From an uncultured Gammaproteobacteria bacterium (GTDB lineage Bacteria > Patescibacteriota > Microgenomatia > Levybacterales > UBA12049), in contig CAZLSZ010000001.1 in NCBI GenBank assembly GCA_964562445.1, positions 10,755-74,754 of the forward strand: a DNA stretch of 64,000 nucleotides, read 5' to 3'. Both the position numbers and the translations under genes were made by a program. Numbering within the stretch: position 1 is the first letter of the stretch; each line of letters starts with the position of its first letter. The notes below the pieces were generated by a model. It was not told the DNA's origin, made no database searches, and saw only the letters and a list, made by a program, of their open reading frames with translations. Below, piece after piece: positions 5,227 to 62,150 of this stretch.

Positions 5227-5883
5227 ATGGGACAGAAAGTAAATCCACATGTTATCAGACTTGGGGCAGTACATACATGGAATAGTCGCTGGTTTGATGA
5301 GAAGTCATACAAAACAGTGTTGCTTGAAGATTATGGTCTTCGAAAGATGTTGATGACTAGGCTGCGCTCGGCAGGTGTGGCAAAAGTGGAGATTGAAAGG
5401 TCCATTAATAGTCTCAAAATTATTATTCATGTTTCTCGTCCGGGTATCGTGATCGGACGGGGAGGATCAGGACTTGAAGAATTGAAGAAAGCGATTACGG
5501 CATTTTTTGCAAAAATCCGCGGGGGAAAGCAATTGCCAAAGATTGATATCCGAGTTGAGCCGATTAAAGAACCGAATCTCAATGCGTATCTTGTTGCAAA
5601 TAATGTGGCAGATCAGTTGGTACGCAGGCTGCCGTTTAAGAGAATTCTCAATTCAACAGCAGAACGTGTTATGGGCTCGGGCGCATTGGGTGTGAAGATT
5701 CTGCTTACCGGACGTATCGGAGGAGCGGAAATAGGCAGACGTGAGAAGATTCATATTGGGACAGTACCATTGTCAACAATCCGGGAAGATATCAGTTATG
5801 CACAGTTCCCTGCATTGACCAAAAAGGGATATATCGGCGTAAAAGTATGGATCAATAGACCTGAGGGAGGAGACACAGTTTAG
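5227..5883 (+). CDS. rpsC: 30S ribosomal protein S3
   Basis: KH and S3-C domains: [12 protein letters not shown]..., [19 protein letters not shown]. Confidence 0.95.
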
Positions 5884-20502: not shown

Positions 20503-21717
20503 TTAGCGGGAGGAGTGTTTGAGTGATTCGGCGGCGATACTCACGGATATTCCCAGTGCCATACCCAGAAGGATACCGATCAGCCCTGCGGAGAATTTTC
20601 CTCCTTCTTTTAATGTCGCCAGTATTTTTTCCCGTCGCTCTTTTCCTTCAGGAGTAGAGGCATCAAATTCGGGAAGCATATCCAGGAGGGAATTAAAGTC
20701 TCCTTTGGCGACCCCTTCTATTACGTCACGCGCTTTGCCGCTATCCAAATCCCCCTCCTGCGCTCTTTTGAAGTATTCATCCATCGGATCTTCTCCTTTT
20801 TCTCGTGCTTCTTCCATCATTTTGTCCATTTGATTTACCATGCCGAGTTCTTTTTCTGCCTGTTCCAGCCGGCGTTTTGCGATCTCGTCATCGGGGAATT
20901 TGGTAAGTATATCTTTTTGTTGGGTTATTTCAGCTCTGAGTGATGCCGCTTGTTTTTCAATTCCTGCCGGACCTACTCCCAGCACATCCATCATCGCGTG
21001 AAAGTCATCTTTGTCCAGAATCGTCTTGCCGTCAATCGCCTGCAATGCTTTGTCAGCATCTTCCCGATCAGGGTGCCCTTCCGGAACGGTTTTATCGATA
21101 ATAGCTCGCATATCTCCTGCGGTGAGCATACCTTTCTCGCGTGCAATCTTTTCTATCTGCGTACTCATCTCATCGGTCATCTCCGGTGTTTCCATACTGG
21201 GATCAATCGTATCCAGATATGTCTTTACAAATTCCCGCTCCTCTCCGGTAAATCCTGCTTCTATGGCTTGTCTTTCCGACACAAGATTCATTCCCATAAG
21301 TTCACTTGGTGGGATAGTCATATCATATCTTGCAGCATCATCGCGGCCTCCTTCTCCTTGTTTGATTACTTTGCATGTGTAATTCCCTTTATCATCGATC
21401 CCTGTTATCTGGTCGACGTAAACATCATACGTCTCTCCTGTGGTACTGTCTTCATAGGTTGTTGCCAGCGGATTACCTTTGTCAGTGCCTTCTGTCGTAG
21501 GGAATGCAAGGGGGCCATTGGCAAAGTATTCTTGTTTGGGTTCATAAAGCTGTTTTGAACCTCGTATCTTGGTTCCTGATTCGTCATTCTCTTGAGATTT
21601 TTTGTTAAAGACACTACTTGCTACCAGTCCTATTTCTTTTGATCGGCGAGCTTGCTGCTCGGGAGATACTTCGCTTTCTGTTCGGGGTGGTGCTGTCTGC
21701 TCTGCTGCTTCTGTCAT
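20503..21717 (-). CDS. hypothetical acidic protein with C-terminal transmembrane anchor (tail-anchored), co-directional upstream of the STK
   Basis: 404 aa, D/E-rich, with coiled-coil-like middle. C-terminus GGKFSAGLIGILLGMALGISVSIAAESL is hydrophobic. No recognisable catalytic motif. Confidence 0.6.
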   Translation of the reverse strand: MTEAAEQTAPPRTESEVSPEQQARRSKEIGLVASSVFNKKSQENDESGTKIRGSKQLYEPKQEYFANGPLAFPTTEGTDKGNPLATTYEDSTTGETYDVYVDQITGIDDKGNYTCKVIKQGEGGRDDAARYDMTIPPSELMGMNLVSERQAIEAGFTGEEREFVKTYLDTIDPSMETPEMTDEMSTQIEKIAREKGMLTAGDMRAIIDKTVPEGHPDREDADKALQAIDGKTILDKDDFHAMMDVLGVGPAGIEKQAASLRAEITQQKDILTKFPDDEIAKRRLEQAEKELGMVNQMDKMMEEAREKGEDPMDEYFKRAQEGDLDSGKARDVIEGVAKGDFNSLLDMLPEFDASTPEGKERREKILATLKEGGKFSAGLIGILLGMALGISVSIAAESLKHSSR

Positions 21718-21761: not shown

Positions 21762-24356
21762 ATGTATATGGCTAATATAGAGCAGATTTTGCCTGTAGTA
21801 AAAGAAAAGGCGAAAGATACAGGAAAACAAGGCGCGGCTAAAGTAAAACACTTTTTCGGTCGGGGAAATAATGTGTCTCCTCAAGAACAACCTCAAAAGC
21901 CGGCATATGCCACTCCGGAATTTAAGAAAAATTTTTTTGTAGATAGGGGCGTGACAACGGAAGCTGCGGTAAAAGGCAGAAGGAGAGAAACCAACGAACG
22001 ATCAGAATGGGTACAATTTTCTGAAAAGACGAGAGAAGGGTTTACGACGTTTTTGGATAATTATGCCACAAATCTCCATGATATCATGCAGCAGCCTGGT
22101 GGCGCGGATATTCTCAAGTCACAAGAGCATAGTAAACATATCTATAAGCTTCTTTCAGAAGGAGTGTCATTTGATGGGACCAAGCAGGATGATACCAAAC
22201 TCAAGGAGAATATCAAAAAAATGCTTGATAAACCATCCGGCTGGGTGCTTACCAAAGAACTTATGGAACAAGAAACAGCCCTCGGTCTTATGGCTTTGGG
22301 GTTGGTAACAAGCGAGGATATGGGGAAAAGTGGTAAGTTGAGAGCAGTAGGAGAATATCTCGGGCTTGTTGATAAAAAAACTGATTTTAATAATGACCCT
22401 GGCTCAGTTATGCATCGTAATATAGGCAAAGGTACCGGAGGGAGTATAGGTGCAGTAGTCGGTGGTGGTGTTGGAAATATATTATCACGTGGGAATGCTG
22501 ATTTCTGGTTCAATATTGGGGATACTATGGCAAATATCCCTCATGGAAGTGTTGCGATGTCAACATATATTGGTGCAGGGGTTGGGGCGGTCTTAGGAAG
22601 TAGTTTGGCAGAGGGACGGAGGAATAAGCAAGATGCAGGGATGAGAGGGGAGTTTGCTTCTCATGAAAGTGCTGTTCTTCCCGGCGAATTGAAAGATTAT
22701 CTGAAAAAAGTTTGGAAAGTAGATGTTGATGGTTTGAAGAGTAGCGAGGCTGATGTGCGGGATGTTATGGGGACGTTGGCAAAGAATCTTAAAACGCGGG
22801 AATCGTATTTTGATGATCTTGGAATACCCAAAGATGTGCGGGATATGTCTCCGGAGAGTAAATTAATTGGAGGACGTTCTGTTGCACGGAGTGGGGAGAA
22901 GATTACACAAAAAATAATGGCAGTTTATAAAGAGAAAGGTGGAAGCACTCCGGAACAATATATGGAGGCGAGAAAGGCAGTGCTAGGAAAAATAACACAG
23001 GAGATGATTGAAGGAATAGAAAGTAAACCAAAGGAACGCCCGCTAGCAACTATTGATCAGAAAATAAAAGACAGACAGGAAGGCGGAAAATTATATGAGT
23101 TAAAGAAAAATAGTGCTGCAACAATAGAATCTATTTCAGAAGCGGGTAAGAATATATCCTCTGTAACAGAGGAAATGGCAACTTTTCAAAATGTTAAAGA
23201 TCTAACTGCTCAAAAAAAACAACTCGAAGACGATTTAAATAATTTATATACTCATATAACACCTCAAGATAGGAAAGATGAAATACAAAAAGAGCTATTT
23301 GGTACAGGAGGACTTCAGGAGAAAAAGCGTGATACTGCCGATAAAAGAGCCGAAGCAATTGATGCAATTCGTAATAGACATCCTATAAAAGATGGGGAAA
23401 CGGCTGCTGATTATTGGAAAAAAGTTGGTCCTTCAATTGACGCGACTGAGGAAATTTATAATGAACAAATTAAGGAAGTGGAAGAAAAAATAAATAAGTT
23501 ACTTCAAGAGAAAGCACAAATTAATGAGTTTGAAGAACGAATAAAGGATATCGGAGATCAGCTCAAAGGATATTCTAATCTTATAGCAAGTTATCAGAGT
23601 GATCTTACGTCAATACAGCCGCTTTTTAGTCCTGGTGTGTTAGAAGATAGGACAATAGATCCAGCTACGCATTTGAAAACGATTAATAGTAAAGCTTCCA
23701 CGGGCGGATGGACAAAAGATGAAAATGACGAAAATAGATTGAGGCTTTTGAAAGCAATTGCAGTAGCAAGAGCAAGTTCGTCAGGAACTATTGACAATAA
23801 TTTGCTCGAAATAGAAATGAGTACACTATTATCGCAAGAAAAGAAGAAGAAAGCTGGTTTAGAACAGAGGTTAGGAACAGTAAATTATGAAAAGGAGATT
23901 AATGATCTTACCATAACAAAAACACTTATTTCTCCAGAAACACAAGCAAAGGTATTTGGGAAGGCAGGAGAAATTTCAAAACAAATAGATAAATATGTTG
24001 ATAAAGATATTGTAGACCCGAAAGATACTATATCAAAAACAGAAAAAGCCCTAAAGGGAGAGAAAGGATATTATGAAATATTAGATTTACTTTTTGAATA
24101 TAGAAAACGACCGGATAGAGAAGAATATTTTTCTCAAATAAGCAAAGTGGTTACTCAAGATGAGGTACTTAAAGCACTGCAAGAGCTAGCTGAACTAGCA
24201 GATATAGATTTAAGTACATTATCTAACCCTAATAAGTTGGCAGATGTTATGGACCAGATAAAAGCAAATAAAGGAAAAGTTACAAGTAAACATATTAGAG
24301 GTATGTTTATTCGCTTAATGGATAATAGTCAAAATCGAGCCTTGGCGATGAGCTAA
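21762..24356 (+). CDS. large hypothetical protein (864 aa): glycine-zipper segment plus long coiled-coil region
   Basis: GKGTGGSIGAVVGGGVGNILSRG...YIGAGVGAVLGSSLAEG (GxxxG-rich). The remainder is K/E-rich heptad-like sequence. Start could be ATG 21768. Confidence 0.6.
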   Translation: MYMANIEQILPVVKEKAKDTGKQGAAKVKHFFGRGNNVSPQEQPQKPAYATPEFKKNFFVDRGVTTEAAVKGRRRETNERSEWVQFSEKTREGFTTFLDNYATNLHDIMQQPGGADILKSQEHSKHIYKLLSEGVSFDGTKQDDTKLKENIKKMLDKPSGWVLTKELMEQETALGLMALGLVTSEDMGKSGKLRAVGEYLGLVDKKTDFNNDPGSVMHRNIGKGTGGSIGAVVGGGVGNILSRGNADFWFNIGDTMANIPHGSVAMSTYIGAGVGAVLGSSLAEGRRNKQDAGMRGEFASHESAVLPGELKDYLKKVWKVDVDGLKSSEADVRDVMGTLAKNLKTRESYFDDLGIPKDVRDMSPESKLIGGRSVARSGEKITQKIMAVYKEKGGSTPEQYMEARKAVLGKITQEMIEGIESKPKERPLATIDQKIKDRQEGGKLYELKKNSAATIESISEAGKNISSVTEEMATFQNVKDLTAQKKQLEDDLNNLYTHITPQDRKDEIQKELFGTGGLQEKKRDTADKRAEAIDAIRNRHPIKDGETAADYWKKVGPSIDATEEIYNEQIKEVEEKINKLLQEKAQINEFEERIKDIGDQLKGYSNLIASYQSDLTSIQPLFSPGVLEDRTIDPATHLKTINSKASTGGWTKDENDENRLRLLKAIAVARASSSGTIDNNLLEIEMSTLLSQEKKKKAGLEQRLGTVNYEKEINDLTITKTLISPETQAKVFGKAGEISKQIDKYVDKDIVDPKDTISKTEKALKGEKGYYEILDLLFEYRKRPDREEYFSQISKVVTQDEVLKALQELAELADIDLSTLSNPNKLADVMDQIKANKGKVTSKHIRGMFIRLMDNSQNRALAMS

Positions 24357-30369: not shown

Positions 30370-31017
30370 ATGAAAGAACGAAAAATAGTACAGAGTGCTC
30401 TTGCAGTAGGGCTTACATTGGGAGGTCCGACATTACCGGGGCTGTCTCTAGAGGCAGATCCTCCTACTCCTCATGTCATGCAAAGTACGGACAAAAAATA
30501 TCCTACAAAAGAAGAGGTAGAAGCCCAAATCGCCGAGAGAAATAAGAATGAATTATCGGGACTAGGAGTTGTAAGTTTGCTGAGTGCATGCGTAGTCGGT
30601 TCAGTAATCTACGCCAGACGAAAGTATAATAGATATGAAAGAGAAAAATCATTGTATCTTACCACAGCAGAACCTGTCTATGAGAAAGATGCTGCAATTT
30701 TTTCGCAAAGTCTCTATCGAAATGCCATTCCCAAGAAAGATGTAAAAAGATATGGGAAAGATCTTATGGAACGAGGTGGCAATCCCAAACATGAATTTTC
30801 AACAACCAATAAAGAAGGATTTATCAACGTCGCCAAGTCTGCGGGCATTCCGAATCGAAAAATATATGCAACTGTGTTGAATTATGATACGCTTTTGGAA
30901 GAGAAACCCAATCCCGAATCCGGTACAGTGAAAGCGCTTATTATCCAAGCATTCAATAAAAAAGATCAGACACGCTACGAAACCAAAATAGGGAAGAGAT
31001 TTTATAGAGGAAATTAA
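30370..31017 (+). CDS. hypothetical exported/membrane protein (215 aa; signal peptide plus one TM)
   Basis: ALAVGLTLGGPTLPGLSLEA signal-like. TM VVSLLSACVVGSVIYA then RRKYNRY. Same architecture as the 29656 gene. Confidence 0.55.
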   Translation: MKERKIVQSALAVGLTLGGPTLPGLSLEADPPTPHVMQSTDKKYPTKEEVEAQIAERNKNELSGLGVVSLLSACVVGSVIYARRKYNRYEREKSLYLTTAEPVYEKDAAIFSQSLYRNAIPKKDVKRYGKDLMERGGNPKHEFSTTNKEGFINVAKSAGIPNRKIYATVLNYDTLLEEKPNPESGTVKALIIQAFNKKDQTRYETKIGKRFYRGN

Positions 31018-32171
31018 TTTTTCTTGTTTTGCGCGATAGTAACAGCTTGCATTACCACAGTTCCAAGCGCGATAAGGAAGATAATGCCTGAAATAAGCCA
31101 GCCGAATACAGGAATGAGCGAGATGAGATAGATAACAACCGGTCCGATTATCACTGCTTTCCAATCAAATGTATATTGCTTTTTCTTATCATTCCGTTTG
31201 GTATACCATTCCATTATCCACCATCCGACAAATAGTTTGGCCAATATCCCCGCCAAAATAAGCACCAATCCGTAGAAGAGGAATGCTGCGATACCCAGCA
31301 TAAGAAGTATCAGCATGAGTATTGCTGCGATAGGAAAGAGGATGAGGAATGCAAACCCGATAACGCCATTTTTTACCGGATGCTCTTTCATCTGTCTGAA
31401 TATATCTACCGCGAATCGTCTGAAGAAATACAGGACGAGTAACCCGAGCAGAATATCAACTATGAGCATGTAGAGAGCACCAGATGTAAGAAAACCAGCC
31501 GCAGTTTTATTGTCATCCCCGTCTTCTTTTTGCGGTGTATAAATTGTTTGACCGTTTACTTTGGCGCTGGGGTCAAGTGATGCTTTATTGTCAGAGGTAT
31601 ATTTCAAATCGCCATTAATGACGGCGCGTGAGCCCAATGAGAGTTGTCCTACATATCCTTCTACTCCTTTACCGACAGTATTATTAACAGTTACTTGCCC
31701 TCCTGAGATAAGTACTTTGCCACCGACAGGCGCGTCAAGTTTGAGGGTCCCGCCTGCGAAAAGTACATCTCCGCCTATCTTTGCGTTTGGTGTCACGACG
31801 ACAGTTCCGCCGGTAACGACCAGATCATTTACGATATCACTATCTACGGTGATGTTTCCCCCTGCTACTCTGAGTGAGTTGCCAATTTTGTTTTTGATAG
31901 TGACATTGCCGCCTCCTACCATGACGCTCTGTCCCACAGGACTGTCGATATCGACTTGTCCCGCACCGACGATAGCATCGCTTTGAACGGGAGCGCTGAG
32001 TGATACGGTATCACCGAAAAGATAGATGTTTTTTATGTCAGCAGCATCAGAACTGACGACAATTTGTTCACCGGTGCGTATGTCTGCGGCGGAGGCGTGG
32101 GGAACAGAGACAATAAAAGGAAGGAGAAGGAGGGAAAATCCGAATATGATTCGTTGAATCAGCTTCATATG
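31014..32171 (-). CDS. beta-helical repeat (DUF4097/bactofilin-like) domain protein with signal peptide and C-terminal multi-TM domain
   Basis: Start chosen at ATG 32171 (MKLIQRIIFGFSLLLLPFIVSVPHASA signal peptide). Repeats GGNVTIKNKIGNSLRVAGGNITVDSDIV...GGTVVV...GGTLKL...GGKVLISGGQVTV. Five C-terminal TM helices. Confidence 0.6.
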   Translation of the reverse strand, partial: HMKLIQRIIFGFSLLLLPFIVSVPHASAADIRTGEQIVVSSDAADIKNIYLFGDTVSLSAPVQSDAIVGAGQVDIDSPVGQSVMVGGGNVTIKNKIGNSLRVAGGNITVDSDIVNDLVVTGGTVVVTPNAKIGGDVLFAGGTLKLDAPVGGKVLISGGQVTVNNTVGKGVEGYVGQLSLGSRAVINGDLKYTSDNKASLDPSAKVNGQTIYTPQKEDGDDNKTAAGFLTSGALYMLIVDILLGLLVLYFFRRFAVDIFRQMKEHPVKNGVIGFAFLILFPIAAILMLILLMLGIAAFLFYGLVLILAGILAKLFVGWWIMEWYTKRNDKKKQYTFDWKAVIIGPVVIYLISLIPVFGWLISGIIFLIALGTVVMQAVTIAQNKKN

Positions 32172-32217
32172 CGCAGTGTAGCATAAAATAGAGCAAGTTT
32201 CTAGAGGGTATTGTCTC

Positions 32218-32332
32218 GTCATTCTGGCTCTGTCCAGAATCGATTCTGGAGCCTGCCTGCCGGCAGGCAGGTTCTCACTTCGTTCGTCCCCAGAATGACA
32301 AGAGAGAGATGCTTAAACGAGTTCAGCATGAC
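32218..32332. repeat. nested palindromic intergenic repeat (gtcattctgg..ccagaatgaca inverted repeat enclosing cctgcctgccggcaggcagg; plus gtcatgctgaactcgt in reverse)
   Basis: Outer inverted repeat 32218-27 / 32290-32300, inner 10-bp palindrome at 32252-71, third motif at 32321-32. Near-identical outer element at 37134-37196. Confidence 0.6.
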
Positions 32333-32905: not shown

Positions 32906-33931
32906 ATGTGGAAAAAAAGTTTATTTATCAGAAATATACAATCGGATAGTTATCTGGAGAATTTTCTTATTTCAGCTGTTGTCAGCGTATTTTTAATCCG
33001 TATCTTCCTAGCAATTACGGACTATCCTATTTTGGGGGCAGGTAATTTGCATATCGCGCATATGTTGTGGGGGGGATTTTTTATGATGGCTGCACTTATC
33101 ACGCTTTTCTCGTTTCTCAGTCAGCGCGCTGCTGCCGTAGCATCTGTGCTGGGTGGGATCGGGTTCGGGGCATTTATTGATGAATTAGGTAAATTCATTA
33201 CGGCAGATAATAATTATTTTTTCCAACCCACTATAGCGCTGATATATATCATATTTGTTTTTATTTTTCTTATTACACGGTTTATTCCACGGTATCATGA
33301 ATTCTCGCAGCGGGAATATCTGGTCAATGCGATTGAAATGATCAAAGAATCTGCGATTGATGACTTTGATGCTGATGAGCGCCGCCGCGCTGAAGAGTAT
33401 TTACGTCAGTGCGATCAGCGTAATGAGATGGTAAAGGCTCTTCAGAAAATGCTGAAAAATAGCGCTATTGCGCCGAGTACTCGCCCCGGGCATTTTACGC
33501 GTCTGCGGCGTAAGCTACGGAGATTATATTATCGTGTCGCGGAATCAGATAGAATCCTTACGGCAATTACCGCCTATCTTGCCGCGTCAACCGCGTGGAC
33601 TTTTTTTAATTCCGTTTTATATTTCTCTCAGCGCGCGTACATGCATTATAGCGATATCGGACAATTATATTCCTCCATGCTGGCAGGATCATTTGTCGTA
33701 ATCGGTCTTTTTGCTCTTAAATTTTCGAGATTTGAAGCGTATCGATATTTCCGCTTCGCGATGCTCACAACTATTCTACTGACAGAATTTTTTTCTCTCA
33801 TGAATCCGGTATGGTATGAAATTTTTACTTTGGGAGCAAATGTTTTTGTTCTTTTGGTTATTAACTACGCGATGATACGAGAACAAAAGAAAGTAAAAAA
33901 CACCAGAGAAGGAGTTGTTGCAAAAAAATAG
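32906..33931 (+). CDS. hypothetical polytopic membrane protein (341 aa)
   Basis: At least six hydrophobic helices. No catalytic motif recognised. Confidence 0.55.
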   Translation: MWKKSLFIRNIQSDSYLENFLISAVVSVFLIRIFLAITDYPILGAGNLHIAHMLWGGFFMMAALITLFSFLSQRAAAVASVLGGIGFGAFIDELGKFITADNNYFFQPTIALIYIIFVFIFLITRFIPRYHEFSQREYLVNAIEMIKESAIDDFDADERRRAEEYLRQCDQRNEMVKALQKMLKNSAIAPSTRPGHFTRLRRKLRRLYYRVAESDRILTAITAYLAASTAWTFFNSVLYFSQRAYMHYSDIGQLYSSMLAGSFVVIGLFALKFSRFEAYRYFRFAMLTTILLTEFFSLMNPVWYEIFTLGANVFVLLVINYAMIREQKKVKNTREGVVAKK

Positions 33932-50650: not shown

Positions 50651-51451
50651 TCAGTCAGGAATGGCATATTTGGGGTCGGCGACTTTATATACGCGTATAG
50701 CCCAGCAAGCGATTGCACGACCTCCTCTGCCGTCATGCGCCATAACTTGCAGTTGATAGAATCCTTCTTTGAGACCAAGATCTTTTACATTCCATATAAG
50801 TTGTAGACTTCTTCCTTTATCTTGATAAAAAATCTTTGGGGGGACAGGTTCTGCTCCATAACTTACTTTTATACCTTTGTATTGATCTCCTCCGTCTTCC
50901 TGATCACTATTATTATATGATCCTCGTATAAAAGTGGGGAAAAAGGGACGACCGCCTTTATCAACAGTGTTAGGGAATATATAGAGAGCAGGCTCCCAGA
51001 TATATCCATCAGGAGCTGTTGCGCTTCGATCTCCCATTGTTTTTATTTGTCCTGAACTTCTGTTAATTTTTTCTTCTGGCGCGACTCGGAAAGGAGCAGG
51101 ACCATTGAGCCATACTTTAATTTGCCCATCAGATCTGACCGCTGCTCCGTGCTCCGGCGAATACGCGATGATAAGTTCAGGATTCGTATTTGCGCCGCCT
51201 TTTCTGCAAAGAGATTCCGCAGGCGGAGTAATTGTAGCTCCGCCAAACATATAGAGTTGGAGTGTGCTTTCTTTTTTGCCTGCAACTTTGTCATTGATAA
51301 CGACTTCTTTCCCTAATGGGATAGGGGCTTGAGAAGGCGCAGGACCTGTGGCAAGAAACGCAAATCCGATGAGGATTGCCATGATAAGCATGATATAAAG
51401 CGCTCCTGTATTGATTCTTCCTATTGGATTAGGTGATGTATATTTCTGCAT
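50651..51451 (-). CDS. hypothetical exported protein (266 aa)
   Basis: N-terminal TM/signal ALYIMLIMAILIGFAFLATGPAPSQA. No motif. Confidence 0.55.
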   Translation of the reverse strand: MQKYTSPNPIGRINTGALYIMLIMAILIGFAFLATGPAPSQAPIPLGKEVVINDKVAGKKESTLQLYMFGGATITPPAESLCRKGGANTNPELIIAYSPEHGAAVRSDGQIKVWLNGPAPFRVAPEEKINRSSGQIKTMGDRSATAPDGYIWEPALYIFPNTVDKGGRPFFPTFIRGSYNNSDQEDGGDQYKGIKVSYGAEPVPPKIFYQDKGRSLQLIWNVKDLGLKEGFYQLQVMAHDGRGGRAIACWAIRVYKVADPKYAIPD

Positions 51452-51503: not shown

Positions 51504-54416
51504 TTACTTATGTGAACTGTTGCAAAGCATACTATATTCGCATGTTTTGCAGATGATTGATCCGCTGCATGTGAAGCTGCTTTTTGAGATTTCATCTACT
51601 TTTTGAACGATATATTCCTTTGCTTCCTCCAATTGTTCAGGTGTTCTGGTAGTTGAAACTTTTTTATTTTCTTCCAGGTAATATAATGTGAGAAGCACAT
51701 CCTCAGGTTTTTTATGAAGTAACGCATCATTTACCTCAGTTGCGGCGATACCGTAAAGAGACAACTGTAAATCGTCTTTTGCTTTTTTTTCAGTGAGTAC
51801 ATTTTTTCCAGTTTTATAATCAATAATTTCTATTTTTCCATTGGGAAGCCGGTCAATGCGATCAATTCTTCCGCTTATTTTTAATTTACCGATCATAAAA
51901 GAAAACGGCATTTCAACAGTCGCGACAGGCGGGATATTCTTTATATTCTCTTGCGCAAGTTTTGTTACCATCCGAAGTGCCTGTGTATATGTTTGTTCTT
52001 CATGTTGCTTGCTGGTATATCCGGCCGATACCCAATTTGTTTTCAGATAATTCTCCATGTCTTCGCGGCTGGCTGTGCTATTTTGTTTAAGATCTTGGAA
52101 GAAGTCTCTCAATGCTCCGTGTACACTTACTCCATAGCTGAGAGCAGGAGAGGGTTGAGACGGCATATTGAGAATATATCGGAGTTTGTAATGCAATGGA
52201 CAGGTAAGATATGTCTGTAATTGTGAGTACGAAATATAGGTAATATCCAGCGGTTCCCGTATCTCTTTTTCAGGAATTTTCTCTTCCACGATATTTGTAT
52301 TGAACACGTCAAGGAGTGAAAGCTGCTGTGCATCAGCTGCTACTGTTTGTTTTTTTATCAGCTGATGCACAGTAGCCTCTCCTAATGTTTCAGTAACAAA
52401 CGGTGACAATTTACGTTCCCGTTTGCCTTCATTATAAAAACGCGCTGCTGTTAGGTAGAGTTTTTCTTTTGCACGAGTGATCGCGACATAGAAAAGTCGT
52501 CTCTCTTCTTGGATTCCTTCATCTCCTTCCGGAAGCGCTTCACGGATAATATCGGGTGGAAGAGGAATTTGTTCTTTTCTGTCTCTACTTGGAAATCTCT
52601 GCGCGACGAGATTAACCACAAAAACATACGGAAATTCAAGTCCTTTGCTTGAATGCACAGTCAGAATATTGACGGCGTTATTGCGTGTCCAGTCCATCTC
52701 CGCCGCAAGCGGACTTTCCCCAAGTTCCATAGCTAGATCAATCCAGTCAACCACTGCAAAGACAGAAATATCTTTTTTATTGTGGGAATATGTTTGCAGT
52801 TTATTAAAAAATTTCGCGATATTTTGCGCTTCATTTTCTGTTTTGAGAGAACCGGGATCCAAATAATGTCCTAAGAGTCCGCTTTCCTCAAAAAATTGAT
52901 ACAGAATCTGCCCCGCGGATTCATGCGGCACGAGTTCAAGATGCTTTTTCAGCATTGTGATAAGAGATATAATTTTTTCTTTACCTTCTTTTGTCAGCAT
53001 TGTTTCCTCAACCTTTTCCATCGCTTCAAAAAGTGTTATATTACTTTGTTTTGAAAAATTCAGCATCGCTGATATATCACGTGCTTGTAGCGCGAAAATC
53101 GGCATCGTCATTACTCTATAGAGAGAAGATGTGTCTTCAAAGTTTGCCAATACATGTAAGTAGGCGATAAGATCTTTTATCTCTTCCTGTTGGTAGAGAT
53201 GATCCGGTCCGAGAAATTGAAATGGGATATGTAATCGATCCAGTGCTCTTTTAAATGGAATTGCGTGATCATTAGCACGGACAAGAATCGCGAAATCATT
53301 GTATGGACGATGTGTTTTTTTCACTTCTTTTTGTATTTCTTTGGCGACTCGTTCCGCTTCATCTTCTCCTCGCGCTTCATAGATAAATTCTATTTGTTCT
53401 CCTTTCTCTCCACGCATACCGATAAGTTTTTTATCTATTTTTTCTTTAATCTCTAGCCTGTCGGGATTATTTTGTTGGATAAGCGTATATGCCGCGTCCA
53501 AAATATTTTGTGTAGAACGATAATTTTTTGTCAAAGCGATAATTTTGCATCCGGGGAAGTGCGAGCGAAATTGCATCATATTTGCGATTGCTGCTCCTCT
53601 CCACCGATAAATACTTTGATCATCATCTCCCACGACTGTTATATTTTTCCGTTGTCCTGCCAGAAGAATTGCCATTTCGTTTTGGGCGAAATTTGTATCC
53701 TGAAATTCATCTACGAAAACATATTGAAATTGTCGCTGGTATTGTTTGAGTACTGACGGACGTTCCCGAAATAATTTCAGCGTATTGCTGATAAGATCCG
53801 AATAATCCATAACGCCTTCTTTTGCTTTCAGATCAGCGTACATCGTAAATGTCTGCGCGAGCTCCATGATTTTTTGTTTTTCGTCATCTTCAATCGTCTT
53901 ATCTTTCATGATACGATTTGCGTACGCGATGTATTGCTCCGGAGTTATGTCATCATCCCGCAGTCTGCTGAAATGTGTGAGCATTCCTTGGAGAAATTTT
54001 GTAGGATTTCCGAATGGACGAAAATATGATAGGTTGAAATCAAACAAATGTTTTCGCATAAAAAGTAAACATTCTGCTTCAGACATCAGCGTGAACGATC
54101 CGTTGAGACCGATATGAATGGCGTTTTGTCGCAAGACTCTGTCACAAAATGCATGGAATGTTTCTATCCAAAGTGTTGCGTACCCATACGGAAGGATTTC
54201 GTCAATTCTGCTTTCCATCTCCTGTGCTGCTTTATCAGTAAAGGTGAGCGCAAGGATATTTGACGGAGGAATATTTTTTTCAAGGATAAGGTGTTCTATA
54301 CGTTTGGTAACGACAGTTGTTTTCCCTGTCCCCGCGCCGGCAATAATGAGTAATGGATCGGTACCATGTGTCACTGCTGCTTGTTGTTCTTTATTGAGTG
54401 AGGATATATCGGGCAT
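51504..54416 (-). CDS. UvrD/PcrA-family SF1 helicase fused to C-terminal Cas4/RecB-type Fe-S PD-(D/E)XK nuclease (AddA/AdnB-like helicase-nuclease)
   Basis: Helicase motifs: IIAGAGTGKTT (I), VFVDEFQDTN (II), TKNYRSTQNIL (IV), VHSSKGLEFPYVFV (V), LFYVAITRAKEKLYL (VI). Nuclease: CPLHYKL, EIIDYKTGK, LQLSLYG, CSGSIICKTCEYSMLC. Confidence 0.85.
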   Translation of the reverse strand: MPDISSLNKEQQAAVTHGTDPLLIIAGAGTGKTTVVTKRIEHLILEKNIPPSNILALTFTDKAAQEMESRIDEILPYGYATLWIETFHAFCDRVLRQNAIHIGLNGSFTLMSEAECLLFMRKHLFDFNLSYFRPFGNPTKFLQGMLTHFSRLRDDDITPEQYIAYANRIMKDKTIEDDEKQKIMELAQTFTMYADLKAKEGVMDYSDLISNTLKLFRERPSVLKQYQRQFQYVFVDEFQDTNFAQNEMAILLAGQRKNITVVGDDDQSIYRWRGAAIANMMQFRSHFPGCKIIALTKNYRSTQNILDAAYTLIQQNNPDRLEIKEKIDKKLIGMRGEKGEQIEFIYEARGEDEAERVAKEIQKEVKKTHRPYNDFAILVRANDHAIPFKRALDRLHIPFQFLGPDHLYQQEEIKDLIAYLHVLANFEDTSSLYRVMTMPIFALQARDISAMLNFSKQSNITLFEAMEKVEETMLTKEGKEKIISLITMLKKHLELVPHESAGQILYQFFEESGLLGHYLDPGSLKTENEAQNIAKFFNKLQTYSHNKKDISVFAVVDWIDLAMELGESPLAAEMDWTRNNAVNILTVHSSKGLEFPYVFVVNLVAQRFPSRDRKEQIPLPPDIIREALPEGDEGIQEERRLFYVAITRAKEKLYLTAARFYNEGKRERKLSPFVTETLGEATVHQLIKKQTVAADAQQLSLLDVFNTNIVEEKIPEKEIREPLDITYISYSQLQTYLTCPLHYKLRYILNMPSQPSPALSYGVSVHGALRDFFQDLKQNSTASREDMENYLKTNWVSAGYTSKQHEEQTYTQALRMVTKLAQENIKNIPPVATVEMPFSFMIGKLKISGRIDRIDRLPNGKIEIIDYKTGKNVLTEKKAKDDLQLSLYGIAATEVNDALLHKKPEDVLLTLYYLEENKKVSTTRTPEQLEEAKEYIVQKVDEISKSSFTCSGSIICKTCEYSMLCNSSHK

Positions 54417-54446
54417 GGAGAAATTCTAACATAAAAGAAAGAAAAG

Positions 54447-56408
54447 TTGTATACTTATGTTATGGATATGTTGACAAATTTTTTTTGGGGAATTATTACT
54501 TTTTTTATGATTTTTGTAGGATCGATATTTTTTGTCATTATATTCGGAATCCTTTTATATAGAGTATTTTTGCGATTAAGATACAATAAGTTATTGAAAA
54601 AAAATTTAGAATCAAGAGAACGGTTAGTATTAGAAGTAAAAATATCAGAAAATAATGAAAGAAAAGAAGAGGGAATGGTAGCATTTCTTCGGTCACTCCA
54701 TAGATTTTTATCATCGGGTACAGTTATTAGTTTGGAGATAGTTTCGAGTAAACAATTTCTTTCTTATTATATAGTTACTACTAGAAATAAAAGACAAATT
54801 ATAGAATCTCAATTTTACGCTCAATTTCCCGATGCTGAGATTATGGAAGTAAAAGATTATCTTTCCCAATGGAAAGAAAATACCGAATATGCTGAACTTT
54901 CATATAAACAGCATAGCATGGCAGCATTAAAGAGCTACGAAAATAGTGATGAAGATATATTGAAAAATTTGTCAGCACTACTTGCCAAAAGTGACATGCA
55001 GGATGAGGTTGCAATTCAGTTGGTCATGGAAAGAATTGGAGCAAAGTCGATGAAACAAGGATTTTTTGCACTGTATTATAAAATTTTGAATTCATCAAAT
55101 GAGAGTAAAGCAACACAAAAATTATCACAGCATCTTTTTCTGGGGAAATTGCGTATTGCTTACACATCCCGTACAAAGCGTGAGGCGAGAATGAAATTAC
55201 ATACCTTTTTACCTATATTCAAGTCAGTAAAAAGTTCGAGTAATGAGCTCGTCAAAAAATCATCGTTTTTCCCCATTGTTCTTGCAAAAGCATTTGCGGC
55301 TCGAATATTTGAACAAGGAGATCTCTGGTCAATTCCGGAAATTGTTACACTCTATCATTTCCCGACAAAAGAAAATACATTTTCCAATGTAGTACGAGCT
55401 CATTCTAAAAGGGCTGCTCCACCTGATATCCTTCCTCGGGAAGGACAGTATCGGCCCGGGCAAATAGCATTAATTGGGGAAACAAATTACCGAAATGAAA
55501 AGATACCATTTGGTATTTTGGATGAAGACAGGAGAAGACATTTGTATGTTATCGGGAAAACAGGTGTTGGGAAAAGTCGATTTTTGGAATTATTGATGAT
55601 GAATGATATACAGCAGGAGAAGGGATTTTGTTTATTAGACCCTCATGGTGATTTGGCAGAAGCAGTCGTTAAACGTGTTCCTAAAAATCGTATCAAAGAT
55701 GTTGTATACGTAGATCCGTCGGATAGAGATTTTCCTATCGGGTTTAACCCATTGGAATATACAGATAATTATGAAAAAAGGCAGCATATCGCTTATTTTT
55801 TTATTGCGATATTTAAAAAATTATTTGCTTCTGACTGGAATGAACGAATGGAACACATTTTGCGAAATATTGTTCTTGCACTATTGGAGACACAGGATTC
55901 AAATGTCTTGGGTATAAATAGGATAATAACCGATACACAATATCGGCATAGGGTAATCAATCAGTTGCATGACCCTGTCGTTAAACAATTTTGGGCAAAT
56001 GAATTTTCATCGTGGAATGAACAATATTCGTCACAGGCAATAGTCCCGATCCTCAATAAAGTAGGGCAGTTTATCAGCAATCCTATCATCCGTAATATGG
56101 TTGGTCAGCAAAAAAATATGCTCGACTTTACGTCATTTATGAATGAAGGCAAGATTGTCATCCTGAATATTTCAAAGGGAAAACTTGGAGAAGATAATGC
56201 GGCATTATTGGGATCTATGTTTATTACCAAAATACAGCAAGCTGCTCTCTCACGGGCAAACATCTCTGAAGAAGAGCGAAAAGATTTTTATTTTTATATT
56301 GATGAATTCCAGAATTTTGCAACTGATGCCTTTCAATCAATTCTATCGGAATCCAGGAAATATCGACTCAATTTGACGATTGCGCATCAATATATAGATC
56401 AGCTATAA
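54447..56408 (+). CDS. TraG/VirD4-like (type IV coupling protein / FtsK-HerA superfamily) membrane-anchored P-loop ATPase, terminated by an in-frame TAA
   Basis: N-terminal TM helices. Walker A HLYVIGKTGVGKSRF. CLLDPHGDLAE (VirD4-like DPxGE). Walker B-like FYFYIDEFQNF. Ends ...TIAHQYIDQL immediately before the TAA. Confidence 0.7.
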   Translation: MYTYVMDMLTNFFWGIITFFMIFVGSIFFVIIFGILLYRVFLRLRYNKLLKKNLESRERLVLEVKISENNERKEEGMVAFLRSLHRFLSSGTVISLEIVSSKQFLSYYIVTTRNKRQIIESQFYAQFPDAEIMEVKDYLSQWKENTEYAELSYKQHSMAALKSYENSDEDILKNLSALLAKSDMQDEVAIQLVMERIGAKSMKQGFFALYYKILNSSNESKATQKLSQHLFLGKLRIAYTSRTKREARMKLHTFLPIFKSVKSSSNELVKKSSFFPIVLAKAFAARIFEQGDLWSIPEIVTLYHFPTKENTFSNVVRAHSKRAAPPDILPREGQYRPGQIALIGETNYRNEKIPFGILDEDRRRHLYVIGKTGVGKSRFLELLMMNDIQQEKGFCLLDPHGDLAEAVVKRVPKNRIKDVVYVDPSDRDFPIGFNPLEYTDNYEKRQHIAYFFIAIFKKLFASDWNERMEHILRNIVLALLETQDSNVLGINRIITDTQYRHRVINQLHDPVVKQFWANEFSSWNEQYSSQAIVPILNKVGQFISNPIIRNMVGQQKNMLDFTSFMNEGKIVILNISKGKLGEDNAALLGSMFITKIQQAALSRANISEEERKDFYFYIDEFQNFATDAFQSILSESRKYRLNLTIAHQYIDQL

Positions 56409-56453
56409 GAAGATATCAGATCAAGTGTTTTTGGGAATGTAGCATCATTATTT

Positions 56454-56783
56454 GTGTTTTCTGTTGGCGGCCAAGATGCTTCATTTCTTTCCAAAGAATT
56501 TGCGCCCATATTTACTGCCGATGATATCCTCAGTTTGGAGACTCGCGATATGTATGTGAAAATGTCCATAAAAGGGAGGGTTGCAAGACCTTTTTCAGCA
56601 AGAACCATTACGACATCTCCACAAGAACATAGTTATTTGCCTGATATTATTTCCTACACACATATGCAATATGCCACTAATAGAGTTGCTGTAGAACGAA
56701 ATATTGAAAAATGGACAAATGCGAAATCTACATTACATCAGGAGCATGCTGATAATTCCGAATTTCCGGAACCGATTCTCTAG
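56454..56783 (+). CDS. ORF in the same frame as the preceding ATPase; the sequence reads as its C-terminal region (possible pseudogene fragment or readthrough product)
   Basis: In-frame continuation across the TAA at 56406-08: ...DQL*EDIRSSVFGNVASLFVFSVGGQDASFLSKEFAPIFTADDILSLETRDMYVKMSIKGRVARPFSART. The first ATG of the downstream frame is at 56454. Confidence 0.4.
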   Translation: MFSVGGQDASFLSKEFAPIFTADDILSLETRDMYVKMSIKGRVARPFSARTITTSPQEHSYLPDIISYTHMQYATNRVAVERNIEKWTNAKSTLHQEHADNSEFPEPIL

Positions 56784-57703
56784 ACTGTGAGGGAATCCCA
56801 ATTATTATCTTTATCTGTCAATTGAGGTAATATAATTGCGGATATTTTTTCGTATTCTTCTTTAGAAAATTGCCTATTCAATATGCAGTACTCCTTATAT
56901 TGTAAATTGACGCAGCCGATACTATTTTTTACGCCTTTACAGTTAAATAAATACCAACTATCCTGACAGTTTGCAGAATTAACAACAAATTGTGAATTAT
57001 AGCAAGTGGGGGAGTCAACAATTTGATACGCATACTCACATCCTTTTGCAGCATATGTTAAGTCATAACTGTGTTTGCAATCAAATGTATCATATAAATA
57101 TCCACTATCTTCATTCCTTGATGAATCAAACACCATATAACAATTTTTGCTGTCATAATGGAAGTTTCCATATGGGGAATTAACATTTCTTTCGGAAATA
57201 CTTTGCGTTATGGGATACCGTGATTGCAGTTCTTCAACCACGCTAAGTACCTGTGAGGGCTGTAGCGCTTTATATTTAGGAAGAAGTCTTTCATATTCCT
57301 CTTGAGAGTATTGACGATTAAAAATGCAATACGATTTATTTTTTAGGTTGCAACATCCGAATATATCGTGACAATTGGAAATATTGTTGCAATACATCGC
57401 GTCTCTAGTATTATCCATGTCTGCGCTATAATAACAATTAAAGCATTTGTATAGATCAACTCCTTCATAACACGATTCTGACTCTACGGTATAATCGCAG
57501 TCTTGACTGTTTGCTACCAGATGGCAGTCAAATAAATAAACTGAGTCCGAACTTGATGACGTATCAAAACAATACGCTAAATTTTTAGAGGCAAATACAT
57601 GATCACTATAATTACAATTTTCGGAGTAGAACACTCTAGTTTCTTGTTTGGGGTATCGATCAAGTAATCGTTGTAATTCTTGAAAAAAAGTTTGCTTGGT
57701 CAT
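56780..57703 (-). CDS. cysteine-rich tandem-repeat protein (307 aa), unknown family
   Basis: Two ~130-aa halves, each ending C(I/L)(F/L)NRQ(Y/F)S(Q/K)EEYE(R/K). Each half is built from ~20-aa units of the form C-x-(Y/F)-x3-5-S-x5-Y-x2-4-C. About 30 Cys in total. Confidence 0.6.
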   Translation of the reverse strand: MTKQTFFQELQRLLDRYPKQETRVFYSENCNYSDHVFASKNLAYCFDTSSSSDSVYLFDCHLVANSQDCDYTVESESCYEGVDLYKCFNCYYSADMDNTRDAMYCNNISNCHDIFGCCNLKNKSYCIFNRQYSQEEYERLLPKYKALQPSQVLSVVEELQSRYPITQSISERNVNSPYGNFHYDSKNCYMVFDSSRNEDSGYLYDTFDCKHSYDLTYAAKGCEYAYQIVDSPTCYNSQFVVNSANCQDSWYLFNCKGVKNSIGCVNLQYKEYCILNRQFSKEEYEKISAIILPQLTDKDNNWDSLTV

Positions 57704-57704
57704 A

Positions 57705-58016
57705 TTATACTTCGGGTAAAGGGTCGTTTATGATAGGATCGTTGGATAAAAAGTAGTCTTCATAATCCTTTTTACAATATATGGGATTTTTTACCGTTGC
57801 AGGATTTTTTGCAACTATGATATCTTTTCCACATTGCTGGCACTGTGTTTTATAAAGCATACGTTCTCCTCCACGAAGTGTTAATCTCCGCATTTGTCTG
57901 CATGTCGGACAATTGTCGGGGAGTGGAAGTCTTTTTTCTTTAAGGAATTCCTGCTCCTGTGTAATGATAAGAAATTGCTTTCCGCATTTAGAACATTGCT
58001 TTGTTGTATTGTTCAT
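57705..58016 (-). CDS. double zinc-ribbon protein (103 aa)
   Basis: CSKCGKQF...CPTCRQ and CQQCGKDI...YCKKDY. Confidence 0.55.
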   Translation of the reverse strand: MNNTTKQCSKCGKQFLIITQEQEFLKEKRLPLPDNCPTCRQMRRLTLRGGERMLYKTQCQQCGKDIIVAKNPATVKNPIYCKKDYEDYFLSNDPIINDPLPEV

Positions 58017-58055
58017 GCGTATAGTATAGTGTATTTCTGAAACGCTTTCAATGCA

Positions 58056-58415
58056 TTAGAGTTTAACCTCTGCATGGGCGAGGGTGTGGGGCCAAAGTTT
58101 GGGGTCTCCATGGCGTACTGTATCTGTCGTGACAAGCATACCTTTATTTGGGATATGCCCTTCGTGTTTGCGAAGCTGATTTTCAAACGTTTGCCTAGCA
58201 AATTTTTTAAGTTCATAATTGTGCGGATCGCCTGTTTTATTGCCAAAATGCTTTTGAACTGCTTCTCTTGTTGTCCAAATCTCGACATTTCTTAGATTAT
58301 TTCCTCCTTGGTCAAAATGGGATACATTTATTTTATACATATTCCCTTTTGGTGTAACTTTTATGGGATGACTTGTTTGAATGGGTGGTACGGGATGTAA
58401 TACTGAAAGATCCAT
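58056..58415 (-). CDS. hypothetical protein (119 aa), first gene of a 3-gene operon with the Zn-ribbon and Cys-rich proteins
   Basis: His/Asn-rich (SHFDQGGNNLRNVEIW...HEGHIPNKG...RHGDPKLWPHTLAH). No family recognised. Confidence 0.5.
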   Translation of the reverse strand: MDLSVLHPVPPIQTSHPIKVTPKGNMYKINVSHFDQGGNNLRNVEIWTTREAVQKHFGNKTGDPHNYELKKFARQTFENQLRKHEGHIPNKGMLVTTDTVRHGDPKLWPHTLAHAEVKL

Positions 58416-58455
58416 ATGAAATTATTATTAATAATATAGATTTGTTTGTCAATTA

Positions 58456-61410: not shown

Positions 61411-61484
61411 AATTGGTGCAATTATTATATCATGGAGCTTTATACTATTTACATTTTACAAATAAGCGAGGTACACTTAACTAT

Positions 61485-62150
61485 ATGTCCGCATCAACGA
61501 TAAAGATTATTGCTCTCATATTTATGCTGATTGATCATTTCGGTATGTTTTTCTTTCCACAGGTGTTTGCCTTCAGAATTATTGGCAGATTATCATTTCC
61601 ATTGTTTGCGTGGACGATTGCGAACGGAGCTCACCATACAAAAAATAGTGCACATTATTTTTTCAGATTGGTGCTTTTTGCAGCTATCTCTCAGATACCA
61701 TATGTGCTCTCTATACGGCAGCTTGCCCCAGGTTTTAACGGTTTAAATGTATTCTTCACACTGAGTATAGGTTTATTAACAATTATGTTTGTGAGGCAGA
61801 TAAAAGATACATTTTATCGATTACTGCTTACATTTCTTATGGCACTAATTGCTCAGTTAATAAATGCTGATTATGGGGCATACGGGATACTGGTAATTAT
61901 GATATTTTACTTCTTTTATCATGATTGGAGGAAAATGCTTATTGCGCAAATTTTTCTCATGGGGCTTGTCTCTCTTATCAGCTATTATTACGCAAATATG
62001 CTGGGGATGTTCCGAGTGTTTGGAATTCTCTCCGTATTATTGCTTCTTTTGTATAATGATAAAAAGGGAAAATCGCTGAAATATTTTTTCTATATAGTGT
62101 ACCCTTTACAATTTATTCTATTTTATTTTATGCTTGAGGCGCTCAAATAA
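61485..62150 (+). CDS. TraX family membrane protein
   Basis: Start at ATG 61485 (MSASTIKIIALIFMLIDHFG, the TraX N-terminal signature). Polytopic. Confidence 0.65.
   Translation: MSASTIKIIALIFMLIDHFGMFFFPQVFAFRIIGRLSFPLFAWTIANGAHHTKNSAHYFFRLVLFAAISQIPYVLSIRQLAPGFNGLNVFFTLSIGLLTIMFVRQIKDTFYRLLLTFLMALIAQLINADYGAYGILVIMIFYFFYHDWRKMLIAQIFLMGLVSLISYYYANMLGMFRVFGILSVLLLLLYNDKKGKSLKYFFYIVYPLQFILFYFMLEALK

Follow-up and report, generated by a model that had tools for sequence, protein, structure and literature searches.

The coupling proteins VirD4, TrwB and TraD carry an N-terminal transmembrane (TM) helix and a TrwB-type P-loop with its Walker A motif, and such type IV coupling proteins (T4CPs) operate together with cargo or with dedicated accessory proteins that bind DNA. 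In Patescibacteria, also known as the candidate phyla radiation (CPR), a 2025 survey counted 5,713 VirD4-like T4CPs, of which only 148 lie near virB4, and considered that these T4CPs may be "exapted for other functions" (PMC12102498). The survey left open the role of the thousands of VirD4-like ATPases whose genes are not accompanied by those of a secretion system, and a concrete candidate partner is described here. It comes from a 64-kb stretch of a patescibacterial genome (contig CAZLSZ010000001.1; hereafter the window, to whose full length all positions refer), in which the gene of a VirD4/TrwB-like ATPase faces a pair of small genes, B and A, encoding a zinc-finger-type protein and a cysteine-rich repeat protein, followed on the other side by a third small gene, C. 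The B-A pair appears to represent, in split ("short") form, an unnamed and very large family that extends across the CPR/Patescibacteria and whose members are mostly fused into a single chain elsewhere, and the pair makes up, with the ATPase, a separable cassette.

The described proteins that most resemble A are narrow beta-solenoids. Like A, the antifreeze protein of Tenebrio molitor (TmAFP; PDB 1ezg), whose consensus is TCTxSxxCxxAx, has 12-residue coils with an inward-facing small residue at every third position; the other narrow solenoids compared with A are curli CsgA (8c50), the ryegrass ice-binding protein (3ult) and the YadA head (1p9h). However, A displays no detectable sequence homology with TmAFP or these solenoids (no Pfam or PDB sequence match). 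The pentapeptide-repeat DNA mimics Qnr and MfpA are cytoplasmic, acidic, non-enzymatic beta-solenoids that bind a DNA-handling machine. They can be compared with A by analogy only. Their period is 5 instead of 3/12, the autocorrelation of A is negative at lags 5 and 10 and A has no Pfam Pentapeptide match. The modules of B correspond to, or recall, zf_Tbcl (PF13451) and zf_Tbcl_2 (PF23477)/TIGR04272, families without known function; the same domains flank the solenoid in the fused forms.

Protein B is basic (isoelectric point (pI) 8.9) and contains 7 Cys. An earlier note on this DNA had described it as a double zinc-ribbon protein, and it does carry two zinc-type modules, both of the treble-clef kind, one above and one below the Pfam cut-off. 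Its residues 5-44 match zf_Tbcl (E = 2.7e-8; 34.1 bits for a cut-off of 24), and its second module scores below the cut-offs of zf_Tbcl_2 (20.2 bits vs 27) and of the NCBIfam model TIGR04272 (19 vs 36). The putative zinc ligands are C8/C11/C36/C39 and C59/C62/C81/D84. The four Cys of the first set are conserved in 35-36 of the 36 B homologues and the three Cys of the second set are also conserved, whereas position 84 is occupied by Asp in 30 homologues and by Cys in 6, an exchange that fits a fourth ligand. The second module, whose pattern is CxxC-x18-CxxD and not CxxC-x17-CxxC, is therefore of a design related to that of zf_Tbcl_2/TIGR04272, with Cys3-Asp instead of Cys4. A conserved basic motif, RRxxLRxxxR, follows the first finger.

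The genomic neighbourhoods of 84 loci (L-numbers in the text designate comparison loci) from genomes and assemblies were surveyed over 6 kb on either side; 37 of these loci carry the short form, i.e. split B and A genes. B adjoins A in 36 of the 37, the sole exception being cut by a contig end. Judged from this gene order and from the fused architectures, B and A are two parts of one functional protein. A word-indexed search with A retrieved 330 relatives of 305-334 amino acids (aa) sharing 46-68% identity, the few named ones being Levybacteria. Furthermore, when 1.84 billion cluster representatives were searched with a profile, at least 3,149 clusters (50% identity) passed E <= 1e-3, of which 894 had E <= 1e-30. 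Many relatives reach 550-600 aa; their A domain covers residues 100-400 or so, and zf_Tbcl modules are found at one or both ends, as in the single-chain examples P0121, P0138, P0151 and P0161, where zf_Tbcl is N- and/or C-terminal. This fused form of about 560 aa is found in thousands of CPR proteins. Indeed, with P0151 as query, 5,782 clusters or more (90% identity) were obtained; the 120 matches listed all measure about 535-690 aa, and the matches are labelled "hypothetical" and come from Gracilibacteria, Peregrinibacteria and other Patescibacteria.

Most fused genes are arranged in tandem arrays, with up to 7 paralogues in one 13-kb locus. In a single-cell Patescibacteria genome (L080 and L061; contig JALLOO010000001, about 1.2-21 kb), at least 10 consecutive finger-solenoid-finger paralogues cover about 20 kb. 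As the paralogues of an array are only 28-46% identical, these arrays must be old. CPR/Patescibacteria genomes measure about 1 Mb, yet some of them devote at least 20 kb to tandem copies of a single unnamed family. No description of this family was found in Pfam, NCBIfam or the searchable literature, and the same holds for its split and fused architectures, for the Cys/Ser-lined 12-residue coil in a protein devoid of signal peptide and TM segment, and for the cassette with the ATPase; by contrast, this type of fold and this type of ATPase have been described before.

The fused genes are found in various contexts. One array lies beside LexA and DinB (L085). In L038 and related Parcubacteria-type loci (4-7 loci), fused paralogues are located between ComEC (with Competence, DUF4131 and Lactamase_B domains)/amidohydrolase/FtsW and MurG. 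One fused member is carried by a 3.26-Mb contig of a metagenome-assembled genome labelled as a non-CPR predator, Bdellovibrionota (L075), with no ATPase within 6 kb; it may result from horizontal transfer or may reflect a wider distribution. A phage origin of the family was also considered. As a fused form had no tblastn match in 50,697 phage records, Foldseek against viral structures gave no match and a scan of IMG/VR returned a single fragment, located at a contig end, this origin was rejected.

Protein A is acidic (pI 4.8, net charge -14) and rich in Cys (20, and not about 30 as had been estimated), Ser (34), Tyr (30), Asn (26) and Asp (23). In line with what was proposed previously, it belongs to no curated family: its sequence is matched by nothing in Pfam, NCBIfam, PADLOC or PDB, and it lacks the Pfam Hexapep signature; PHROG 15341 (function unknown) matches one fused form at 6.9e-7, and the PHROGs otherwise gave no significant match. 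Neither A nor B has a signal peptide or TM segment. The internal duplication suspected in A is clear from the comparison of residues 1-155 with residues 156-307 (Smith-Waterman score of 213 vs 40.4 +/- 7.7 for 1000 shuffles, z = 22), and each half does end in a conserved box, YCIFNRQYSQEEYER and YCILNRQFSKEEYEK, respectively. No tandem or direct DNA repeat is found in gene A, which indicates that the duplication is old and that the pattern does not result from composition. As the pattern is also kept in hundreds of homologues, the possibility of a low-complexity artefact, raised with the initial description, can be ruled out.

The initial description divided each half of A into six units of about 20 aa. 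The periodicity is instead that of about 8 coils of 12 residues built on a 3-residue lattice. When 272 non-redundant domains are aligned, the columns that prefer Cys recur at every third residue between residues 30 and 126, without interruption. This register contains 41% Cys, 20% Ser and 21% aliphatic residues, the next one is Tyr/hydrophobic and the third one is Asn/Asp-rich. The profile autocorrelation is positive at all multiples of 3 and strongest at 12, 24 and 36, and 11 of the 12 Cys of the N-terminal half of the window protein fall in one register (P = 1.4e-4). A first AlphaFold2 (AF2) model, calculated with 37 close sequences, was mediocre (pLDDT 77, pTM 0.52), whereas a model using 100 sequences from both subfamilies reached a pLDDT of 86.4 and a pTM of 0.80. 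In each half, it displays short strands that recur at intervals of 12 residues (179-183, 189-195, 201-204, 213-215, 226-229, 238-241, 250-253 and 262-265 in the C-terminal solenoid), an N-terminal helix and a helix or helical hairpin after each half. A is thus predicted to consist of two tandem, narrow, helix-capped beta-solenoids with 12-residue coils, each coil having four small inward-facing residues. As the entropy of A differs little between registers, no hypervariable face, i.e. no diversified binding face, was found. Unlike TmAFP, A has no Cys pair per coil, its Cys are interchangeable with Ser or aliphatic residues, it lacks a signal peptide, no TxT face is visible in its sequence, and its two tandem helix-capped solenoids would act with zinc fingers. 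A Cys/Ser-lined 12-residue beta-helix would be cytoplasmic here, whereas the main other example of this design is an antifreeze protein that insects secrete.

The ATPase gene, A and B form a self-contained and separable 3.6-kb cassette. Indeed, the comparison of the window with the related locus L087 (blastn) reveals a clean 3,609-bp indel: position 5365 of L087 corresponds to position 58051 of the window and position 5368 to position 54441, with 76% identity on both sides, and no repeat of 8 bp or more flanks the cassette. In L087 and L088, the gene order is RmuC-C119-UvrD, without the cassette. In the closest relative, whose C is 84% identical, the order is TsaD-CAP-RmuC-C-UvrD, with nothing between C and UvrD. 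Protein C is basic, with 10 His, 9 Asn and no Cys; its homologues amount to just 7 clusters and its gene always follows rmuC (L013, L023, L031, L087 and L089), with or without B-A nearby. It appears to be a narrow, lineage-specific gene of the rmuC-uvrD backbone, outside the conserved module. Describing the partners of A as Cys/His-rich is therefore right for B and wrong for C, which has His but no Cys.

The earlier note treated the T4CP-like ATPase as background, but it is a conserved third partner that adjoins A in 36 of the 37 short-form loci. The two genes are convergent in the Microgenomates-type loci and co-directional (ATPase-A-B-A) in the Peregrinibacteria-type ones. In the window, their stop codons overlap by 4 bp (56780-56783), as they do in 21 of the 32 Microgenomates-type loci; since no terminator fits in such an overlap, the A and ATPase transcripts must run into each other, and these converging transcripts may lead to antisense control. 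The genes around the short-form loci vary: superoxide dismutase and an ABC transporter, glycosyltransferases, or rmuC/uvrD. The uvrD-PDDEXK and rmuC genes are close to the cassette in both Levybacteria-type and Peregrinibacteria-type loci. An ATPase gene is also found within 6 kb of the fused-form arrays in about 10 of 48 loci, and 8 kb away in L086.

Like the VirD4/TrwB/TraD proteins, the ATPase has a TM helix (residues 19-37, Kyte-Doolittle hydropathy 2.93) and a Walker A motif (GKTGVGKS, residue 370), and it matches the Pfam models TrwB_AAD_bind (28.7 bits vs 20.5) and DUF87 (29.8 vs 23.2), with a T4SS-DNA_transf match as well. Its homologues carry an additional DUF8128 domain. However, its scores are well below the NCBIfam cut-offs for TraD/VirD4 (30 bits vs 366-648 for the window protein; 56 vs 250 for the intact homologue of L001). 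Furthermore, no virB4, other type IV secretion system (T4SS) gene or relaxase gene was detected among the window ORFs scanned with Pfam or within 6 kb on either side of the related loci, and B-A resembles no known relaxosome or effector protein. As already noticed, the ATPase gene of the window is interrupted. A single in-frame TAA (56406-56408) replaces a Pro/Ser of the homologues (QL[PS]ED), and the 125 codons beyond it are fully conserved, which speaks against an old pseudogene and for either a nonsense mutation of recent date or an error in the assembly.

The reading that we favour is that B-A acts as a non-enzymatic client, adaptor or regulator of an orphan coupling-type ATPase, possibly in DNA handling. 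A, which has no catalytic signature, would most likely provide a rigid binding surface and B a predicted head that binds nucleic acid or protein. The ATPase would be a membrane-anchored enzyme of the hexameric type, a kind known for moving DNA or proteins at the membrane, and the pair would operate in a DNA-recombination/repair setting (uvrD-nuclease, rmuC, recA). For this statement as a whole, i.e. a zinc-finger/beta-solenoid unit partnering an orphan coupling-type ATPase as a non-enzymatic binder or adaptor, we consider the chances to be about evenly balanced, and specific mechanisms such as DNA mimicry or secretion are much less probable. A more ambitious extension would be that the family supplies the missing partners of the orphan VirD4-like ATPases of Patescibacteria, in a CPR-specific, non-conjugative machine for translocation or DNA handling, whose motor, a membrane hexamer, would act on, or be gated by, up to about 12 acidic, rod-like solenoids with zinc heads that bind nucleic acid during DNA uptake/salvage or delivery to a host; we regard it as rather unlikely.

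Several observations weigh against a functional partnership of B-A with the ATPase, or against the part assigned to A in it. Owing to the stop codon in the ATPase gene, the module may be inactive in the window. When the search is reversed, an A/B neighbour is found for only 9 of 80 distant ATPase homologues (33-50% identity, metagenome contigs), and 30 of the 80 ATPase loci have instead an upstream gene encoding a protein with Sigma70_r4 and HARE-HTH domains. For most fused-form arrays, the surrounding genes are unrelated housekeeping ones. Finally, the Cys that are spaced as C-x8-C-x8-C at the end of each half of A (C108/C117/C126 and C255/C264/C273) could form a capping metal site at each solenoid end. 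The Sigma70_r4 and HARE-HTH protein, of about 356 aa, is encoded upstream of the ATPase in loci of the L091-L170 set (e.g. L113:3877-4944); in other lineages, the ATPase may have it as an alternative partner.

The reversed search, together with the many fused arrays (a majority) that have no nearby ATPase, is also what would be expected if B-A were an independent DNA- or RNA-binding factor whose adjacency to the ATPase is inherited synteny without functional coupling; the basic character of B and its conserved RRxxLRxxxR motif would suit such a factor. We nevertheless hold this explanation to be unlikely, because the adjacency outlasts changes of orientation, flanking genes and phylum, the three genes move as one indel and the convergent stop overlap is conserved.

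A partnership of another kind would make B-A and its fused paralogues secreted effectors, which the ATPase passes to a patescibacterial T4SS. The Cys ladder would be oxidised outside the cell into a disulfide-braced beta-helix like that of the beetle antifreeze protein, and the arrays would be repertoires of effectors for host interaction. The ATPase is indeed of the substrate-recruiting T4CP kind, the arrays hold 10 or more old and divergent paralogues, and T4SSs are widespread in these epibionts (PMC12102498). However, A and B have no export signal or membrane segment, no toxin or enzyme domain is present, zinc fingers are typically intracellular, and odd numbers of Cys are as frequent as even ones. 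Moreover, no virB4 or other T4SS gene was found among the window ORFs scanned, and proximity to virB4 is rare among Patescibacteria T4CPs in the same survey. Secretion of B-A is therefore improbable.

The numerous Cys of A could also suggest a metal-binding or thiol-redox protein, either an array of CxxC knuckles for Zn or Fe-S or a thiol/disulfide cycling system. In favour of such a chemistry, the family consensus has a CxxC every 9-12 residues and CxxCxxCxxCxxC runs occur in fused forms, the partner B is a genuine zinc protein, and the two C-x8-C-x8-C series are near-universal: C117, C255, C264 and C273 are present in more than 84% of the domains in both subfamilies and C108 in about 80% in both, C126 being present in 92% of the short forms and 39% of the fused ones. 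However, A of the window retains a single CxxC, and A has no invariant set of ligand Cys, whether tetrads or cluster motifs. The occupancy by Cys of the lattice positions mostly ranges from 10% to 80%, and Cys alternates not only with Ser but also with residues that are not ligands: from the short to the fused form, position 114 passes from Val to 98% Cys, position 42 from Leu to 80% Cys and position 99 from Met to 73% Cys. A domain can have as few as 10 Cys or as many as 37, with random parity. Their covariation is dominated by the split between short and fused forms, with weak i/i+15 and i/i+12 ladder signals and no co-varying tetrads beyond this subfamily signal. As Cys is replaced by Ser, Val, Leu, Met or Ile and its number is so variable, most Cys of A probably serve core packing and are mostly not metal ligands, on a lattice that fits the buried, inward-facing positions of a 12-residue beta-helix. 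Among the possibilities initially listed for A (metal-binding, redox or beta-solenoid), the solenoid is thus retained and a general metal or redox chemistry, which we find decidedly improbable, is not. More generally, many regularly spaced Cys need not imply metal binding.

The least probable explanation, a very doubtful one, is that the cassette is an anti-phage defence system or a mobile element combining a HerA/FtsK-like ATPase with a variable-repeat sensor, since its presence/absence polymorphism, the slightly lower GC content at 54-59 kb, the weak PADLOC matches of the ATPase (mad8, 1.2e-14; HerA, 1e-9) and the expansion of the family into paralogues are opposed by the lack of any PADLOC-DB 2.0 match for A and C (B having chance-level matches only and the ATPase generic P-loop ones only), by the lack of integrase, transposase and nuclease effector among the window ORFs scanned and of flanking repeats, by the conservation of the module across CPR phyla and its location among core genes, by the ancient and not hypervariable paralogues and by the near-empty phage and viral searches.

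The features of the locus are listed in Table 1. The three ORFs of the minus-strand operon that had been proposed for A, B and C do exist, with exactly the boundaries then given, but the conserved unit is B and A, without C. B and A are separated by 1 nt, whereas the spacers between C and B and between rmuC and C measure 39-40 nt and each contain a sigma-70-like match; hence a single three-gene operon is possible, yet it would not be a conserved unit.

Table 1. Position of the cassette, its neighbour C and the elements of protein A in the window
Feature	Position	Strand	Description
VirD4/TrwB-like ATPase	54462..56783	+	Convergent with A; Pfam TrwB_AAD_bind and DUF87
Gene A	56780..57703	-	ORF, 307 aa; starts 1 nt after the B stop codon
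Gene B	57705..58016	-	ORF, 103 aa
Gene C	58056..58415	-	ORF, 119 aa
Cassette (ATPase, A, B and promoter-like site of B)	54442..58050	.	blastn against L087
Promoter-like site before B	58023..58051	-	TTGAAA-17-TATACT, 10/12; consensus match alone
Promoter-like site of C	58424-58452		11/12; sigma-70-like consensus match
N-terminal solenoid of A, aa 27-128	57320..57625	-	About 8 coils of 12 residues
Box 1 of A, YCIFNRQYSQEEYER, aa 125-139	57287..57331	-	Last strand of solenoid 1 and start of capping helix
C-terminal solenoid of A, aa 177-275	56879..57175	-	Predicted strands
Box 2 of A, YCILNRQFSKEEYEK, aa 272-286	56846..56890	-	End of second half

The genes neighbouring the cassette in the window include recA, recX, the gene of RNase Y, an ABC transporter gene, uvrD-PD-(D/E)XK, rmuC, the gene of a CAP-domain protein, tsaD and traX. 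No integrase, transposase, nuclease effector, radical SAM enzyme, VirB4 or known defence protein is encoded by the window ORFs that were scanned, and Rfam gave no match across 54-59.6 kb. The suggestion of the earlier note that the context is a mobile or defence-related island is therefore not supported, the neighbours being housekeeping and DNA-repair genes, and the radical SAM or other maturase for which a check had been advised is not found among the neighbouring ORFs scanned.

Other genes of the window can be mentioned. The minus-strand gene at 51504-54416 encodes a 970-aa UvrD-type helicase with a PD-(D/E)XK nuclease domain and a C-terminal Cys cluster, CSGSIICKTCEYSMLC; its strong PADLOC matches of the GajB/RTasHel type reflect the UvrD helicase core. 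The adjacency of this UvrD-PD-(D/E)XK gene to rmuC is conserved in several CPR lineages. A TraX-family protein (PF05857, 2.9e-37) is encoded on the plus strand beside tsaD (61413-62150) and belongs to the conserved backbone; L087 and L089 have it too. At the thresholds applied, Pfam matches none of five ORFs of 266-864 aa (21762-24356, 20503-21717, 31014-32222, 32906-33931 and 50651-51451); the shortest, of 266 aa (50651-51451), is part of a stretch that aligns to L087 with about 76% nucleotide identity.

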